A stretch of DNA of 64,000 bases, taken from contig JAQTYG010000001.1 in the NCBI GenBank assembly GCA_028688375.1, positions 183,420 to 247,419 of the forward strand. The letters are read 5' to 3'. Each line of letters opens with the position of its first letter. Position 1 is the first letter of the stretch. This stretch comes from Patescibacteria group bacterium (GTDB lineage Bacteria > Patescibacteriota > Patescibacteriia > Magasanikbacterales > GWA2-37-8). The translations under genes were made by a program, and so were the position numbers. The notes under the pieces were generated by a model that did not search any database, had not been told where the DNA came from, and saw only the letters and a list, made by a program, of their open reading frames with translations. Below are positions 36,304 through 53,431 of the stretch, one piece after another.

Positions 36304-36546
36304 ATGAAAAGGGTTTATTACTACCACTTTCCTGGTGGTCCGGGCGGGATCTTCGGAGCCAGCCCCTACGGCCAGATCATGATCCGCGACCTGGCGGATG
36401 GCGGGAAGGAGACGTACAGCGAGTATCTCACTGATATCGAGCTCCTGATCCTCCTGCTGAATGAACTGGCGAAGGACCCGCGGTGCAACAAGAACGACAT
36501 CGCTCGGGCCAAGGCCGAGATCCAGCGGAAGCTGGGCAAGAAGTAG
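36304..36546 (+). CDS. Hypothetical small protein (80 aa), GC-rich cassette gene 1
   Basis: AAAGGAG Shine-Dalgarno 7 nt upstream of ATG; about 60 percent GC versus under 40 percent in flanks; no recognisable domain. Confidence 0.55.
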   Translation: MKRVYYYHFPGGPGGIFGASPYGQIMIRDLADGGKETYSEYLTDIELLILLLNELAKDPRCNKNDIARAKAEIQRKLGKK

Positions 36547-36548
36547 CC

Positions 36549-37016
36549 ATGGAGACCACGCACGCCCACACCAACTTGTGCGAATGCGGACTATGCTGTG
36601 AGGGCAACCCGCATGTCTACATCGAGCTCAAAAACAAAAAACAGCGCCATGGGCCATTCGAATCGGCCTTCGAGGCGCTGATATTCCTCTTCGGGCGAAC
36701 CGCCAGCAAGGTGGTCACCAAAGAGGAGACCGGAAAGGAGGTCCTGACCGCCGATCTGGACAAGAAAGAGGCGGTCGAGATCGGCCAGTGGATTCTGAAC
36801 ATCCTGCCCCACGGCCGGACCGACACCACCACCGCCGCCACCGAGCTCAAGCGCGAGCTCGAACGCCACCACAACGGACAGTCCGTCCGCCTGCTTGAAC
36901 TGGCGGACGCTATGTTCGCTCCCCTGTTGGAAGGGGAAAAGTCCTTTGATAAGCTCCCACCGCCCCGAGAGCGCGAGAAGCTCTCGCTACGATACGTCGT
37001 GGCTACCGGCGGTTGA
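36549..37016 (+). CDS. Hypothetical protein (155 aa) with N-terminal Cys cluster (CECGLCCEGNPH), GC-rich cassette gene 2
   Basis: ATG immediately after the gene 1 stop (the ORF track's longer 36483 start overlaps gene 1 and is less likely); followed by a terminator at 37040. Confidence 0.5.
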   Translation: METTHAHTNLCECGLCCEGNPHVYIELKNKKQRHGPFESAFEALIFLFGRTASKVVTKEETGKEVLTADLDKKEAVEIGQWILNILPHGRTDTTTAATELKRELERHHNGQSVRLLELADAMFAPLLEGEKSFDKLPPPREREKLSLRYVVATGG

Positions 37017-37115: not shown

Positions 37116-37217
37116 TTTTTAGCTATTATAATCCGCCCGTTTAGGAACGGGCAACGAACATGGCCCGTTCGTCTATCAGTTAGGACACGGCCCTCTCAAG
37201 GCTGAAAGACGGGTGCG

Positions 37218-37236
37218 ATTCCCGTACGGGCTACAA
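37218..37236. repeat. 19 nt direct repeat ATTCCCGTACGGGCTACAA, copy 1 (tRNA-3'-end-like)
   Basis: Identical 19-mer recurs at 37449..37467. Confidence 0.6.
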
Positions 37237-37544: not shown

Positions 37545-37925
37545 TTATTTTTTGACAACATTGTCCTTGTTAAACAAAAAACCCACTACTATCAATGCTA
37601 ACCCGATCGTTTTTAAAAAACTCTCTCCAACAAAAAATGGCACAATATAACCTTCGTTAAAGCTCATCCATTTAAATCCTACTGCCACTATAACAAAAAA
37701 ATCAAAAACAACAATTGAAATGATAACCCGTAATAACCAATCAGACCATGTCCTTCTCATGCCCATTATATCCAGTCTTTCGCGAGCCAAAATTTGCGCA
37801 ATTATTTTATCCTGCTCCAGCTGGCTCATTTTCCTTTGTGTTTCTAAATCAGGCCCAACAATATCGTAAGTCGTTTGTTCCTCCAATATCTTTTTGACTT
37901 CCTCAACTGTTACGCGATTTTCCAT
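37545..37925 (-). CDS. Small membrane protein (126 aa, soluble N-terminal domain plus 2 TM helices); holin-like or membrane anchor
   Basis: WLLRVIISIVVFDFFVIVAVGF and LKTIGLALIVVGFLF hydrophobic helices; overlaps the ImmA-like gene by 16 nt. Confidence 0.45.
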   Translation of the reverse strand: MENRVTVEEVKKILEEQTTYDIVGPDLETQRKMSQLEQDKIIAQILARERLDIMGMRRTWSDWLLRVIISIVVFDFFVIVAVGFKWMSFNEGYIVPFFVGESFLKTIGLALIVVGFLFNKDNVVKK

Positions 37926-38506
37926 AAATTCAGCTTCTTCATTCTGAAAGCCATCATTTCATTTGACACTCCGAACATTTTGGCCAGCAGATCAATATCA
38001 TCTTTTGTAATTTTGTATTTATTTATTATTTCTTCAGCCATGTTTTTAGGCACAAGAATATTAGCGGCAAAACAATTAGCCTCTTGCTCTACCGGGCTAT
38101 AATTTCCATTAATGATTGTTTGTCGCAATAACACATTGTAGTCGGAAGGCTTATGTTCCATTTTAAAGTGTCCCAACTCATGTGCTATAGTGAACATCTG
38201 ACGATTTGCTGGGTCGTCATTGTTAACAAAAATTATCTTCTTTTCAATATCTAAGAAACCAGCGACGGATTGAAGCTTCTCGGGCATTTTAATAAAACGC
38301 AATTCCAGCCCCTCGCCTTTGGCAATTTGAAAAACATTAACAACGGGTTCGGTTACACCATATTTTACCAACAAATCATTGGCTAATTCTTCACATTTTG
38401 GAAAATTTGCCTCGCCCATATAATAATGGTTAATTTTTACTTCTGCTGTTGGTAGTATAGCACAATAAAGAAATTTTGACGATTTTAAATTTTTCTTTAT
38501 GCACAA
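37910..38506 (-). CDS. ImmA/IrrE family zinc metallo-endopeptidase (DUF955)
   Basis: HEXXH motif FTIAHELGHFKMEH plus downstream EQEANCFAANILVP are typical of ImmA/IrrE; real start is probably the internal MGEANFP. Confidence 0.65.
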   Translation of the reverse strand: MCIKKNLKSSKFLYCAILPTAEVKINHYYMGEANFPKCEELANDLLVKYGVTEPVVNVFQIAKGEGLELRFIKMPEKLQSVAGFLDIEKKIIFVNNDDPANRQMFTIAHELGHFKMEHKPSDYNVLLRQTIINGNYSPVEQEANCFAANILVPKNMAEEIINKYKITKDDIDLLAKMFGVSNEMMAFRMKKLNLWKIA

Positions 38507-49247: not shown

Positions 49248-51491
49248 TTACTTTTCTGGATTCCCGCCTTCGCGGGAATGACAAATATGTACATTTTTTT
49301 TAACGAGGCTCTCCGTGTCCAAACCAGCTTGACCGTAGACTTCCGTCGCTCGGCCGGATTTAAGAAAATGATCCACGCCGATGAGGCGGTTCTGATAACC
49401 GGCCGGTTGGATAAACTCGCGGGTAAATTCATTCCAGCCGTTGTGCAGAGCGATAACAGTGGCCCTTTCTTCATCGGATAAAATGGCTTGCGCTTTTTTC
49501 GGATCGGTTTTTTCCAGTTCCACAAATAATTCCGGCGAAGTGACGACAACGATTTTTACGTCCAATTTTTGTTTGGCTAAATCGGGCAGGGCTAGTAAAA
49601 CATTTTGCAGAAGCGTGGCGCCACAAACCGCCAGCGCGATTTTTTTGCCGGCGCCGGTGTATTCTTTATAGATGTAAGCGCCATCGCAGGCGGATGAGGC
49701 CGGCGTATTTTTTCTGTCTAACACCGGAGTCTCCGAACGGGACAGGGCCAAAACAATCGGCTCGCCTTTCTCCAAAGCGAAAAACAGCATCTCAATTACT
49801 TCATTGGCATCGGTCGGCTTGTAAACTTTTATCCCGGGATAAGCGTCAAACAAAGACATCCAATACATGCCCTGGTGGGTCGGGCCGTCTTCGCCTGTTT
49901 CCGGGCCGTCATGTGTGGCCAGAGCGATAAAAAAGCCCTGTGTAGCCGGATTGGCGGCATTGGCCACCAGCGCCAAATGCACGGCGTGACCATACATAGC
50001 GGTAAAAACGCCGTAAGTGCCGAACACTGATACCGGCCGGAAACCGCCGGGTAAAACATCCTGCGTCAAGGCCATAGACATCATGGCCATATTTTGTTCA
50101 GCGATGCCAAAACGAATGCCCCGGCCGAACTTATTTTGCGCGTTGATGATGCCATAAACATGCTCCGACTGGCCGAGCAAAACCGATTTGCTCAAATCCC
50201 CCGCTCCGGCGTAAAAAAACGCGGTCTGCTCCATCAACCATTTGCACCAGAGCTCGGAGGCCTGGCGCATGCTAATTTTGTCGCCGGGCTTGAAGGCAAG
50301 TTCGGGCGGGAGGTTTTTCGGACGCTTGATGCCACGCGGATTTATCAGCGGACGATTGGGCAAAGTTTTTTTCATCCGCGCTATCAGTTCAGATTCCGGT
50401 TCAATTTTGTCCGCGCCTTTTTCCAATTGCCAATCAATAAACGAAGCATCGTCTTCAGTCAACGCGTCCAAAATCTTTTGAATATCACGGGCGACATTTC
50501 CCTTTTCTCCGGGCGCGCTAAAACCAAGCTGTTTCAAAATTTTTACATAATCTTCATGGTCGGTCGGCGAACCATGCGAGGCAGTGGTGTTTTCTTTGGC
50601 GCCGTATTCTTTGCCTTTGATAGTGTGGGCGATAATTGCTGTCGGCCGGCTGTTGTCAAAACCTTGGCGGGCGATGGCGTAGGCGTAAAGAAGTTCGTTG
50701 ACATTGTGGCCATTTGCTTCAATCACATTCCAACCAAAACCGAGCCAATAATTCAAATACGGCGCGCTCATGGCTTCTTCAATCGGGCCGTCAATACCAA
50801 AATGATTGTAATCAAGTGAGACGATAATATTGTCGGTGGCGGTGGCGACCAAAACATTGCGCGCTTCAAAAGTCATGCCCTCTTCGCTCTCGGCATCGCC
50901 CATCATCACCCAAACTTTGGTCGGCAGACCGCAACTGGCGTGCGCGATAGCCATACCGCCGGCGGCGGAAAAACCATGGCCGGACGGACCGGTGCAATAG
51001 TCGGCATAGGGATATTGGCTTTCGGCATGACCGGGCGGACCGTCCAAACGGCGGAATTGCGACAAGTGTTCGGGCAGAACGCAATTAACCACGGCTTCAG
51101 AAAATTGGCGACCGGCTCGGCGCATGGCTTCATAGTATAGCGCCTGTCCGCCGTACAAAAGCGGGGTGCAGTGGCCGGCGCTCCAAATCAACCGGTCTCG
51201 GCCGGGATGTTTGGGGTCGGCCGGATCAAAGGCCAGCGAACCGCCCAGGGTAAGCGCTAAAAATTGTTCCACTTTGGAGCTACTGCCCCCGGGATGGCCG
51301 GACCGGGCGCCTTCCACGGTGGCAAAAATAAGGCCACGGAGAATTTTGGCCAGACGGTCTAAACGAGAAATGTCTAGGCCGTTATATGGCTCCAATTCAG
51401 CGTCTTGCAATTTAATATATGTAGCGCCGTCGTTTTTTCCGTTTACTGTCAATTTTTTCAGGTCTTTGGCAACAAGGGGGTTAAGGGGCAT
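49248..51491 (-). CDS. tkt: Transketolase (full length, with an approximately 60 aa N-terminal extension)
   Basis: GHPGGS ThDP motif, GDG..EG block, FGIAEQNMAMM pyrimidine-binding region; 747 aa. Confidence 0.8.
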   Translation of the reverse strand: MPLNPLVAKDLKKLTVNGKNDGATYIKLQDAELEPYNGLDISRLDRLAKILRGLIFATVEGARSGHPGGSSSKVEQFLALTLGGSLAFDPADPKHPGRDRLIWSAGHCTPLLYGGQALYYEAMRRAGRQFSEAVVNCVLPEHLSQFRRLDGPPGHAESQYPYADYCTGPSGHGFSAAGGMAIAHASCGLPTKVWVMMGDAESEEGMTFEARNVLVATATDNIIVSLDYNHFGIDGPIEEAMSAPYLNYWLGFGWNVIEANGHNVNELLYAYAIARQGFDNSRPTAIIAHTIKGKEYGAKENTTASHGSPTDHEDYVKILKQLGFSAPGEKGNVARDIQKILDALTEDDASFIDWQLEKGADKIEPESELIARMKKTLPNRPLINPRGIKRPKNLPPELAFKPGDKISMRQASELWCKWLMEQTAFFYAGAGDLSKSVLLGQSEHVYGIINAQNKFGRGIRFGIAEQNMAMMSMALTQDVLPGGFRPVSVFGTYGVFTAMYGHAVHLALVANAANPATQGFFIALATHDGPETGEDGPTHQGMYWMSLFDAYPGIKVYKPTDANEVIEMLFFALEKGEPIVLALSRSETPVLDRKNTPASSACDGAYIYKEYTGAGKKIALAVCGATLLQNVLLALPDLAKQKLDVKIVVVTSPELFVELEKTDPKKAQAILSDEERATVIALHNGWNEFTREFIQPAGYQNRLIGVDHFLKSGRATEVYGQAGLDTESLVKKNVHICHSREGGNPEK
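49256..49283. repeat. REP-like hairpin family A: CTGGATTCCCGCCTTCGCGGGAATGACA
   Basis: Between the tkt stop and the ATPase start; preceded by an 8 bp GC hairpin ACCCCCGA..TCGGGGGT. Confidence 0.65.
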
Positions 51492-51723: not shown

Positions 51724-52251
51724 ATGAAAGAGGAAAAAACAGTGGTAAGGGCCTACCTGGCCAATCAGTTTGGGTTCTCGGAAACCGGCCGGTACGTGCT
51801 TGACAGCCTCATCAAGCCGAGGATCACGGCCATGGGCATTGTGATTCTCGACCCGTTTGAGGAGTGCGGAAAGGAACTGGACTTCGCCCATCTTGCCCGC
51901 TTGAAGCGCCATGATAAGGTGACGGCCTATTGGACGGAATTCAACGCGAAAGTGACGCACATAAACAACGCGCTGATGCGCGACTCCAACTGCCTCCTGG
52001 CCGTCTTGGACGGCGGGCACGCGATTGACGACGGCGTCGCAAGCGAAATCGGCTACTACGCCGGCATTCGACAGGGAAAAATTTTCGCCGTCAGAAGCGA
52101 TTTTCGCTGTGGCGAAAACATGGCGGCGGCCATCAACCCCCAAATTCTCGGCTACATCCAACAAAGCGGCGGTTCTCTGTCCGTCTGTCCCGATGCCATG
52201 AAAAAATGGTTCGCGGCCATTCAGACGTGGAAAGAGATGCTCGCGCGGTAG
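51724..52251 (+). CDS. Nucleoside 2-deoxyribosyltransferase family protein
   Basis: AAGGAGGG Shine-Dalgarno; VLDGGHAIDDGVASEIGYYAG matches the NDT family D-x-G-x-x-x-E-x-G-Y-A motif. The opposite-strand 218 aa ORF is rejected. Confidence 0.65.
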   Translation: MKEEKTVVRAYLANQFGFSETGRYVLDSLIKPRITAMGIVILDPFEECGKELDFAHLARLKRHDKVTAYWTEFNAKVTHINNALMRDSNCLLAVLDGGHAIDDGVASEIGYYAGIRQGKIFAVRSDFRCGENMAAAINPQILGYIQQSGGSLSVCPDAMKKWFAAIQTWKEMLAR

Positions 52252-52352
52252 CATGCCGGCTAGAAATCCCCTCCTCATTTCATTCGCCCTTTCGCGAGGC
52301 AAAACGAGCCTTCTCGCCTTGCCTCCTTCTAAAAATATTTTGTATTAAAAGT

Positions 52353-52388
52353 CCGCCACGTGCGTAGTTATGCGTGGCGGGTTTTTTG
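52353..52388 (+). terminator. Rho-independent terminator CCGCCACG-loop-CGTGGCGG followed by GTTTTTT
   Basis: Read directly; downstream of the NDT gene. Confidence 0.65.
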
Positions 52389-52391
52389 TGT

Positions 52392-52427
52392 AAAAAAATG
52401 AGCCCGCGACGGACGACGTCGGAGCTC
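52392..52427 (-). terminator. Rho-independent terminator (GAGCTCCGACG..CGTCGCGGGCTC hairpin followed by a U-tract on the minus strand) after small paralog A
   Basis: Same element recurs at 52907..52943 after paralog B. Confidence 0.55.
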
Positions 52428-52456
52428 GAGAGAAAGAACGGGGGTGTGGCGGTAGG

Positions 52457-52840
52457 CTACTTGGCGAGGTCGGCGGGCACGGGAGGACCTTCGACGACAG
52501 GGAGACCGAGAAGGCGCTGCTGTTCGGGCGTGAGCAGGCTGAGAGCTTTCTTGACCGCTTCGGCCCGGATCGCTTCCTGGTCGCTGAGTTCGACCGGAGT
52601 GTTGTTGAGAACATATCCAGTCTTGCCGTCTTTCGTCAGGACGGACACCTCCACCACATTGCCGTCTCTACCGTACCAGGCCCTCCCCCTACCTTCCGCT
52701 GTGGCCAGGTCTTTGTCGGAGAAATATCCTCCGATATTCCAGCTGTTGCCCATCTCGTTATCGGAGAGTTGTAACATATACCATGTTTCAACTCGCCAAC
52801 CAGCCAGACCTTCTTTGAGCAGTTCCGGCACCATGTTCAT
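52457..52840 (-). CDS. Hypothetical small protein, paralog A (127 aa) of a tandem duplicated cassette
   Basis: AAGGAGG Shine-Dalgarno; shares GWRVETWY, VLTKDGKTG and LLGLP blocks with paralog B; TTGACA-17-TAAAGT promoter at about 52880..52908. Confidence 0.55.
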   Translation of the reverse strand: MNMVPELLKEGLAGWRVETWYMLQLSDNEMGNSWNIGGYFSDKDLATAEGRGRAWYGRDGNVVEVSVLTKDGKTGYVLNNTPVELSDQEAIRAEAVKKALSLLTPEQQRLLGLPVVEGPPVPADLAK

Positions 52841-52906
52841 TCCCTCCTTTTGGGTTGTTGCTGTTTTAGGTTCGAATGCACTTTACTATGAGTGTATTTT
52901 TTTGTC

Positions 52907-52943
52907 AAAAAAAATGAGCCCGCGACGGACGACGTCGGAGCTC
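52907..52943 (-). terminator. Rho-independent terminator after small paralog B (duplicate of 52392..52427), immediately followed by the TTGACA -35 of the paralog A promoter
   Basis: Read directly. Confidence 0.55.
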
Positions 52944-52973
52944 TGAAAGAAGGAGCGGGGGTATGGCGGTAGG

Positions 52974-53345
52974 CTATCTGAGGAAAGGCAGGCCGAGAAG
53001 CTGACACTCTTCGGCGGTGAGTACGGTTCCGATTTTTTTGAGGGCTTCGGCTTTTCTGGCGGCGAGCCGGTTTTCCTCGTCTTCGATCTCGATTACTTCC
53101 CCGCGGAGAGTCCAGCCAGTCTTGTCGTCTTTGGTCAGGACGTGAACCGCTTCCACGACCGCGTCCGAACAAGCTGAGCAGGAACCTCGTTCGTCCCCGT
53201 GTGCGAGGCGAGCCTGATTCTCGCTGGGAAAATACCTCACCTTATCTCCGGCAGGAACCGCGCCGGCAGATAAGGTCATCAGTCCGTACCAGGTTTCCAC
53301 TCGCCAACCGACCTTTTTCAGGTCCTCCATGAGTTCTTCCCACAT
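52974..53345 (-). CDS. Hypothetical small protein, paralog B (123 aa); Cys-containing variant (CSACSD)
   Basis: AAGGAGGG Shine-Dalgarno; TTGACA-17-TAGAGT promoter at about 53395..53425; paralogous to 52457..52840. Confidence 0.55.
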   Translation of the reverse strand: MWEELMEDLKKVGWRVETWYGLMTLSAGAVPAGDKVRYFPSENQARLAHGDERGSCSACSDAVVEAVHVLTKDDKTGWTLRGEVIEIEDEENRLAARKAEALKKIGTVLTAEECQLLGLPFLR

Positions 53346-53431
53346 TTTTCCCTCCTTTTGGGTTGTTACTATTTTGAGTCCGGATTTATTCGCACTCTAA
53401 CCTAAAAAAATGTTTTTGTCAAAAAAAAACG

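Follow-up and report, generated by a model that had tools for sequence, protein, structure and literature searches.

What are two small genes doing side by side, each between a promoter and a terminator of its own, in the chromosome of a Patescibacteria group bacterium, and where did they come from? The genes, here called A and B, form head-to-tail tandem units on the minus strand, offset by ~515 nt, at positions 52340-53431 of the window, by which we mean the whole 64,000-nt stretch of contig JAQTYG010000001.1 that was analysed. Genomes of Patescibacteria, or the candidate phyla radiation (CPR), are small and rich in unknown genes, and the phage interactions of these bacteria are little known. 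A and B are real, independently signalled paralogous genes; at present their tandem duplication is well documented and their function is anonymous. Our best explanation as a whole, to which we give a probability of about 45%, is that they are tandem-duplicated genes of the PHROG 5370 family, encoding phage-derived binding or modulator proteins which take part in phage-host conflict.

Gene A (52457..52840, minus strand) is an open reading frame (ORF) of 127 aa, called by NCBI as PHD72_01220 with 125 aa. Its probable start is the second ATG at 52834, which lies 8 nt past GGAGG, while the first ATG at 52840 lies only 2 nt past it; the 125-aa form is favoured because its Shine-Dalgarno (SD) spacing is better and it agrees with the NCBI call. 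Gene B (52974..53345, minus strand) encodes 123 aa and corresponds to PHD72_01225, which has 118 aa there and starts from an internal Met. The first ATG of gene B is supported because the N-terminal MWEELM is kept in its orthologue P0002 from a related organism and because residues 1-20 have a low ratio of non-synonymous to synonymous substitution (dN/dS 0.11). In BLASTP the two proteins shared 40% identity over 110 aa (E 1e-19), with the blocks GWRVETWY, VLTKD.KTG and LLGLP in common, which agrees with what the initial annotation had reported for ORFs of 123-127 aa. No further copy of A or B was found within the window.

Promoters and terminators were called from sigma-70-type consensus matches and predicted hairpins. 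The promoter of unit B (53394..53422, minus strand) has TTGACA as -35, a 17-nt spacer and TAGAGT as -10, and that of unit A (52880..52908, minus strand) has TTGACA, a 17-nt spacer and TAAAGT; each matches the consensus at 10 of 12 positions. In the 2.5-kb region there were eight promoter-like sites, compared with 1.5 expected from shuffled sequences. An AAGGAGG Shine-Dalgarno stands in each unit on the minus strand, at 53351..53357 in unit B (5 nt ahead of the ATG at 53345) and at 52843..52849 in unit A (8 nt to the ATG at 52834). The leaders of both units are A-rich and unstructured, and the 5' untranslated region (UTR) of unit B folds no better than shuffles.

Each unit ends, again on the minus strand, with an intrinsic terminator whose stem has 11 bp, one bulge and a 5-nt loop. 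In unit B (52907..52943) the stem-loop 52943..52916 is followed by A and eight T (-17.2 kcal/mol), and this T-run overlaps the -35 of unit A; in unit A (52392..52427) the stem-loop 52427..52400 is followed by seven T (-18.7 kcal/mol, z -3.0). The 28-nt stem-loop GAGCTCCGACGTCGTCCGTCGCGGGCTC is identical in the two units. Ahead of it, the 3'UTR carries a C/U-rich tract on the minus strand, located at 52944..52973 in unit B, where it is predicted to be unpaired and contains CUCCUU, and at 52428..52456 in unit A, conserved with unit B. Over the ~68-nt 3' flank formed by tract and stem, B is 91% identical to A; the tract holds five of the six differences and alone is ~83% identical. The initial annotation had described tandem self-contained cassettes of promoter, SD, gene and terminator for paralogous proteins of unknown function, with TTGACA-17-TAAAGT/TAGAGT and AAGGAGG in each unit and identical GC-hairpin terminators, and this description is borne out by repeat spacing, BLASTP and the position of every element.

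The direct-repeat families of the array have spacings of 499-516 nt. One of them, D4, has three copies with spacings of 516 and 514 nt, and the third copy is a degenerate version (TTTTTTTACACAAAAAA; 52380..52398, minus strand) of the junction made of T-run and GACAAAAA. This degenerate junction past unit A marks the array end and may have served as a short repeat in unequal crossing-over; the array is thus bounded by short direct repeats which permit such an exchange. Just outside the cassettes, the terminator hairpin of the convergent Nuc_deoxyrib_tr gene (52359..52376, plus strand) forms the outer boundary of the array. The plus-strand ORF of 190 aa lying over the cassettes (52374..52946) starts inside this hairpin without SD, reads through the terminator copies to give KKMSPRRTTSEL at each end, and has no Pfam match; it is evidently an artefact, as had been judged earlier. 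We also considered an integron-like or mobile cassette and rejected it: no recombinase lies nearby, and the direct repeats (19 nt here, and 63 nt in another genome described below) are simpler to understand as substrates or remnants of unequal crossing-over.

To what family do the proteins belong? Word-indexed protein searches returned almost only the query's own records, and the family was revealed only by an exhaustive HMMER search with a profile of A and B against 1.84 billion cluster representatives (E<1e-3). It gave 58 representatives, of which ~52, with lengths of 105-161 aa, are true members. The six others (P0025, P0035, P0036, P0045, P0047 and P0054) were rejected as homologues, being Cna-B-like or tail-fibre-like repeat proteins which match only via VLTK(T)DDKTG / TNNDKTGY repeats. 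The family consensus is dLaGWrvEtWYeL...GYFtDkdLA..GkGkGWyG.DG.V.eV.VLTkDGkTGy...L.dEe...A...A..KLTPEERrLLGL; of its motifs, the Gly-rich aromatic loop is kept most widely, phage members included. Gene A is a canonical member with all four hallmarks, namely GYF.D..LA, the G(K/R)G.GWYG.DG loop (GRGRAWYGRDG in A), VLTKDGKTGY and KLTPEER.LLGL. The divergent paralogue B has them in part: it carries VLTKDDKTGW, LTAEECQLLGL and the N-terminal GWRVETWY, and has ERGSCSACSD in place of the Gly-rich loop. The extra Cys residues (CSACSD) which had been pointed out in B are indeed present, but they are not conserved, and the CSAC motif is absent from the orthologue P0002.

Gene A matched the profile of PHROG 5370, a phage protein family of unknown function, with E 3.7e-8 (residues 19-113 on profile positions 9-111 of 112). 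B reached this model only below threshold, and the family profile found B by hmmsearch with E 2.6e-28. PHROG 5370 was matched by 25 of the 39 aligned members (best E 4.8e-14), and hhalign against a protein of Citrobacter phage Ci1 gave 96.9% probability. We found the phage branch in 208 phage records, mostly of T4-like phages of Klebsiella, Enterobacter, Salmonella and Aeromonas, and is always annotated as 'hypothetical'. Cellular members come from metagenome-assembled genomes of Saccharibacteria and Patescibacteria and from similar contigs; further members lie on a 435-kb viral contig and on phage-like contigs, one of them beside RNase H and primase. Scans of genome, metagenome and viral collections added three, three and two extra loci, few because the search pattern was narrow. 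As judged from these profile matches, the family is evidently common to CPR bacteria and large lytic phages, and it is rare.

Comparing the two branches, the proteins of PHROG 5370 in T4-like Straboviridae of Klebsiella, Enterobacter, Salmonella, Aeromonas and Citrobacter (~110-116 aa) are homologous with A over the full length. Both branches have GY(F/Y), the Gly-rich G.G..YG.(D/N)G loop and the C-terminal KLTxEEkxxLGL; two elements of the cellular clade, the well-conserved N-terminal strand dLaGWrvEtWY and the hairpin VLTKDGKTGY, are lacking in phage members. Their genomic setting also differs: phage members are located inside operons of early, replication or nucleotide-metabolism genes, whereas each CPR member is a monocistronic gene in the chromosome, between a promoter and a terminator of its own. 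On a 74-kb phage-like contig (L018, 5001-7295) the stop of the family gene directly abuts the start of a DnaG-type primase gene; the primase contains a LAGLIDADG/Hom_end intein, and upstream there is an RNase H gene. Two members, P0005 and P0043, have C-terminal Cys-rich, zinc-ribbon-like extensions (CSCGFEECPHCG; CLNCG...FCGKH), the sole domain fusions seen in the family.

Outside PHROG, searches gave no name for the family. None of the 39 aligned members matched Pfam at E<0.01, a database which includes Imm and antitoxin families, and scans of A and B against NCBIfam, PADLOC and Pfam gave nothing significant, so that neither protein falls in a well-known housekeeping family by Pfam or NCBIfam. 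Profile searches of PDB by sequence gave only chance matches (E>0.3); a lectin 'GWRVEK' motif among them was considered and put aside as coincidence. A literature search on small tandem paralogues in CPR found nothing specific.

When did the duplication happen, and what became of B afterwards? A 1.1-kb contig from SRR33452766 (L014) is syntenic with the window: it carries the end of the gene for the sulfatase-domain protein that neighbours the cassettes and then P0002, a B-type gene. Its cassette has the same promoter pattern, SD and terminator, and the -35, the -10 and their spacing are conserved also in unit A. Between the window and L014, the sulfatase C-terminus has 89% amino acid identity (dN 0.06, dS 0.70, dN/dS 0.09), and B and P0002 have 59% (dN 0.34, dS 0.50, dN/dS 0.68); the non-synonymous rate of B is thus ~six times that of the adjacent sulfatase gene. 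The change is uneven along the protein. The scaffold of B (residues 1-20, 65-80 and 99-123 together) has dN/dS 0.26, residues 21-64 are near neutral with 0.95, and residues 81-98 have a nominal value >1, to which we give no weight as it comes from few sites and an alignment gap. The fast part of B coincides with the region most conserved in the rest of the family.

Besides its orthologue, the best match of B is A, while the best matches of A are in other lineages and B ranks only 31st; this argues for local duplication followed by accelerated divergence of B. These comparisons show that the ~515-bp unit, which holds promoter, SD, gene and terminator, was duplicated in tandem in this Patescibacteria lineage before its split from the L014 organism, giving two monocistronic genes with strong expression signals. 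B arose from an A-like copy by this lineage-specific duplication and has lost the Gly-rich loop, keeping the scaffold formed by the N-terminal strand, the VLTKD.KTG hairpin and the C-terminal helices.

Among A, B and L014 the regulatory flanks share 81-91% identity, while synonymous sites of the genes differ (proportion of synonymous differences, pS, 0.37-0.61); the flanks are conserved beyond synonymous sites, therefore the expression signals have been kept by selection, gene conversion, or both. In the terminator stem of L014, a G opposite U changed to A, turning a G-U wobble into an A-U pair. The 3' flank including the ~30-nt C/U tract (52428-52456 and 52944-52973 in the window, 1000-1030 in L014) is 86-91% identical among the three, also better conserved than the synonymous sites, and in B and L014 the tract contains CUCCUU or CCUCC, which resemble an anti-SD. 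The conserved UTRs belong to no known RNA family, because an Rfam scan of the cassette region gave no match.

Is the pair unique? An independent tandem pair was found in an AT-rich CPR-like contig (L019 3497-4370, and also L020 1305-2178). It consists of P0061 (125 aa) followed by a 116-aa paralogue (L019b) with 32% identity and a profile E of 7e-19, and each gene has its own promoter (one a perfect TTGACA-17-TATAAT), SD and hairpin terminator. The second copy is without the Gly-rich loop, like B of the window, yet it does not group with that B. L003, a close relative of L019, has a single copy. On L013 the single gene P0060 is bracketed by a 63-nt direct repeat (1133-1195 and 1712-1774; 86% identical, 579 nt apart), of which a weaker third copy lies at 308-335; this repeat could have served in unequal crossing-over or been left by it, or it could be a repeat element of the local intergenic DNA. 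The L019/L020 pair, the single copy of L003 and the L013 repeat together indicate that cellular members tend to be monocistronic, locally duplicating units. A 77-aa gene upstream in both L003 and L019 was considered as a partner and rejected as lineage-local synteny only.

Structure prediction, which the initial annotation had proposed as a check, was run on both proteins. The AlphaFold2 model of A, made with the 39-sequence alignment, had a mean confidence (pLDDT) of 88.8 and a predicted TM-score (pTM) of 0.68, with secondary structure in the order b-b-a-b-b-b-a-a. The model of B (pLDDT 83.3) has the same order of elements, and its low-confidence part is exactly the one that stands in place of the Gly-rich loop. 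Foldseek against BFVD gave seven matches (E 1.6e-6 to 1.5e-5) to phage proteins of 99-116 aa, and those with a UniProt name, from Atu_ph07, CcrColossus and PN09, are all uncharacterised phage proteins. The fold match is loose, because the TM-scores are only 0.41-0.61 and the root mean square deviation is high. Against PDB the best Foldseek match had E 0.12. We conclude that A and B are predicted to be cytoplasmic alpha+beta proteins of ~120 aa, with a modelled fold that has no solved relative.

What, then, could the proteins do? The family is acidic: 32 of the 39 members have an isoelectric point (pI) <6 with a median of 5.3, and the values of A and B are 4.74 and 4.98. By reading of the translations, the N-termini of A and B (MNMVPELLKEGLAGW, MWEELMEDLKKVGW) are hydrophilic and have no signal peptide, leader or double-glycine motif, and no transmembrane segment was noted in either sequence. 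We favour a role as phage-origin cytoplasmic binding or modulator protein in phage-host conflict because conserved polar residues that look catalytic are absent, as are transmembrane and signal segments, the proteins are acidic, their distribution is linked with phages and their expression signals are strong. Taken alone, this role is a tentative proposal and rather less likely than not. A and B would be non-enzymes of phage origin, and the host might keep them as accessory genes with constitutive expression, much like phage morons. They could bind and block, or act as decoy of, a component of nucleic-acid or nucleotide metabolism, which could amount to superinfection exclusion or to the work of a takeover or anti-defence protein that the host has domesticated. 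Lacking the loop, B might serve as a diverged partner of A or as its specificity variant, possibly joined with A in a putative heteromer. Fast, patchy evolution is typical of conflict genes, which is compatible with the intuition of the initial annotation.

Known systems offer partial likenesses. Phage morons are autonomous units of promoter, gene and terminator which lie between prophage genes in lambdoid phages. The cassettes resemble them in having a single accessory gene with its own predicted sigma-70-type promoter and intrinsic terminator, an atypical GC content (57% vs 44%) and a phage-related family; unlike morons, they are located between chromosomal housekeeping genes, their position is conserved in a relative and there are two tandem copies. 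Small acidic phage anti-defence proteins, such as anti-CRISPR proteins and Ocr/ArdA-type mimics, are likewise small, acidic, fast-evolving and without enzymatic motifs, and also come from accessory or early regions of phage genomes. No homology to a validated defence inhibitor was found by PDB profile and fold searches. Through this locus, a gene pair on a CPR chromosome is connected with a protein family that hundreds of T4-like and jumbo phages carry. Should this family take part in phage-host conflict, the cultivable T4-like phages of Klebsiella and Enterobacter would give an experimental handle on a protein which CPR bacteria have retained and duplicated.

Several observations weigh against a phage-derived conflict protein. 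The locus is outside any prophage, among chromosomal housekeeping genes, and no phage gene was seen within ~10 kb. Its position downstream of the sulfatase gene is conserved in the L014 relative, so the cassettes have long been resident and were not imported recently. Part of the GC excess is a property of the family, and the adjacent nucleoside 2-deoxyribosyltransferase gene is equally GC-rich. No conserved gene neighbour was found across the contexts, and the literature search found no paper mentioning the PHROG family and no annotation of function. The single pairwise dN/dS of 0.68 for B fits diversifying selection or relaxed constraint alike.

The layout itself is that of an ordinary tandem duplication; the gene involved is accessory and uncharacterised, and novelty is limited to the anonymous family, the fold without solved relative, the link between CPR and phages, and the recurrent pairs with and without loop. 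A bolder view is that A and B define a new fold class of phage-derived conflict proteins domesticated by CPR, in which a canonical subunit, whose Gly-rich loop binds a ligand or target, would be joined in a heteromer by a fast-evolving loop-less paralogue that sets specificity; such pairs would have arisen independently at least twice (A/B in the window and P0061/L019b in L019) and would make a hitherto unrecognised minimal anti-phage or superinfection-exclusion system of ultra-small bacteria. We regard this extension as improbable.

The main rival is that the proteins are a small regulatory or ligand-binding accessory factor of the host's nucleotide or nucleic-acid metabolism which uses the G(K/R)GxGWYGxDG loop (e.g. 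to hold phosphate or a nucleotide), with the phage copies as auxiliary metabolic genes and B as a ligand-blind regulatory paralogue. The wide conservation of the Gly-rich aromatic loop, in phage members too, fits this idea. So do the cellular neighbours, which include Nuc_deoxyrib_tr in the window, a PRPP-synthetase-like gene in L008, HIT in L009, orotidine monophosphate (OMP) decarboxylase and phosphoribosyltransferase 2-3 kb away in L003, and phosphoribosyltransferase in L019, where only this one was seen because the contig ends there. Among the phages and phage-like contigs, neighbours are dUTPase, exonuclease, primase and topoisomerase in Ci1, the nrdC region in Mineola, RNase H and primase in L018, and exonuclease and DNA methylase in L011. 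However, these neighbourhoods are not conserved gene by gene, and genes of nucleotide metabolism abound in reduced CPR genomes and phage early regions, so the association may be chance. The family is also far too rare and patchy for a core function, and fold searches found no likeness to known nucleotide-binding folds. We consider a metabolic role unlikely.

The duplication might instead be neutral, with B redundant, relaxed and on the way to a pseudogene, and the cassette layout without special meaning. B has lost the hallmark loop, evolves near neutrality over residues 21-64 (dN/dS ~0.95), is modelled with lower confidence in the loop region and carries a CxxC motif that is not conserved, all of which would be expected from decay. 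Yet the B ORF has stayed intact in two lineages separated by dS ~0.5-0.7, with dN/dS 0.26 over the scaffold and 0.11 over the first 20 residues, and its promoter, SD and terminator are 86-87% identical to those of the orthologous locus. A canonical and a loop-less gene are paired independently in L019 too. Decay of B therefore seems distinctly unlikely to us.

The initial annotation had likened the layout to duplicated immunity, antitoxin or bacteriocin-related cassettes, and this likeness found no support, as there is no toxin partner, no match to Imm or antitoxin families and no export signal. In the first form of the idea, A and B would be orphan immunity or antitoxin cassettes whose products neutralise either polymorphic toxins delivered by competitors or a cognate toxin whose gene lies elsewhere. 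Polymorphic toxin systems are known to include arrays of diverged immunity genes, and the tandem, strongly diverged small paralogues with their own promoters, their acidic cytoplasmic nature and the patchy fast evolution of B look similar. Unlike such arrays, the cassettes have no toxin module or Imm-family match and their family is distributed in phages. No adjacent toxin, bacteriocin or export gene was found here or in ~10 other contexts, and none of them has a toxin-like neighbour; a Fic protein is encoded 1.1 kb upstream in L009 only. Not one of the 39 members matched Pfam, and A and B had no PADLOC match. The homologues are in operons of lytic T4-like and jumbo phages beside replication genes, and early, replication or nucleotide-metabolism regions of phages are an unexpected place for immunity or antitoxin genes. 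We find this explanation very improbable. A bacteriocin precursor or its immunity protein, suggested only by the small gene size and the self-contained tandem layout, is effectively refuted by the anatomy: the translations have no leader, signal peptide or double-glycine motif, no transporter, modification or immunity membrane protein is nearby, and the ~120-aa proteins are acidic, predicted to be folded and have homologues in lytic phages.

The contig that carries the pair is 281 kb long. The genes around the phage-related pair encode a P-type ATPase, a transketolase, the convergent nucleoside 2-deoxyribosyltransferase, the LtaS-like sulfatase-domain membrane protein, a hibernation factor (HPF) and MurB; no prophage, toxin, transporter or recombinase gene was found near the cassettes. 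Each of the two coding sequences has 57.0% GC compared with 44.1% for the window (~2.3 standard deviations over 52 long ORFs), and the whole interval 52340-53431 has 53.7%. The earlier statement that the units have about 58% GC, higher than their neighbours, is thus close for the coding sequences and only partly true for the neighbours, because the Nuc_deoxyrib_tr gene also has 56% GC. This gene (51724..52251, plus strand) has a GC content at third codon positions (GC3) of 0.73, where the gene means of the window are 43% GC and 0.47. As it is equally GC-rich, a compositional island may span ~51.7-53.4 kb. The L014 orthologue also shows the excess (57.9% vs 45.5% for the L014 sulfatase fragment), and family genes in other genomes are 1-7 GC points over their background, or slightly below it in one GC-rich viral contig. 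Because the excess is found in L014 too and is partly family-wide, GC says little in favour of a recent transfer.

The highest GC in the window (60%, GC3 0.73) belongs to a 177-aa ORF at 36483-37016 (plus strand) without Pfam match. It sits beside the only tRNA gene of the window (tRNA-Glu, 37162-37234) and a Peptidase_M78 gene for an IrrE-like, ImmA/IrrE-type metallopeptidase (37910-38506), and this region may be a small island or the ORF may be spurious. Palindromes like repetitive extragenic palindromic (REP) elements, of the 'gtcattcccgcg...gggaatc' type, occur at 49248-49290 in the window and at 411-575 and 1065-1125 in L014. In the window the palindrome coincides with the 3' end of the transketolase ORF, which reads ...HSREGGNPEK and resembles a translated REP-like element; in L014, elements of this kind occupy the whole stretch from the sulfatase gene to the B-type cassette and also trail the cassette terminator.

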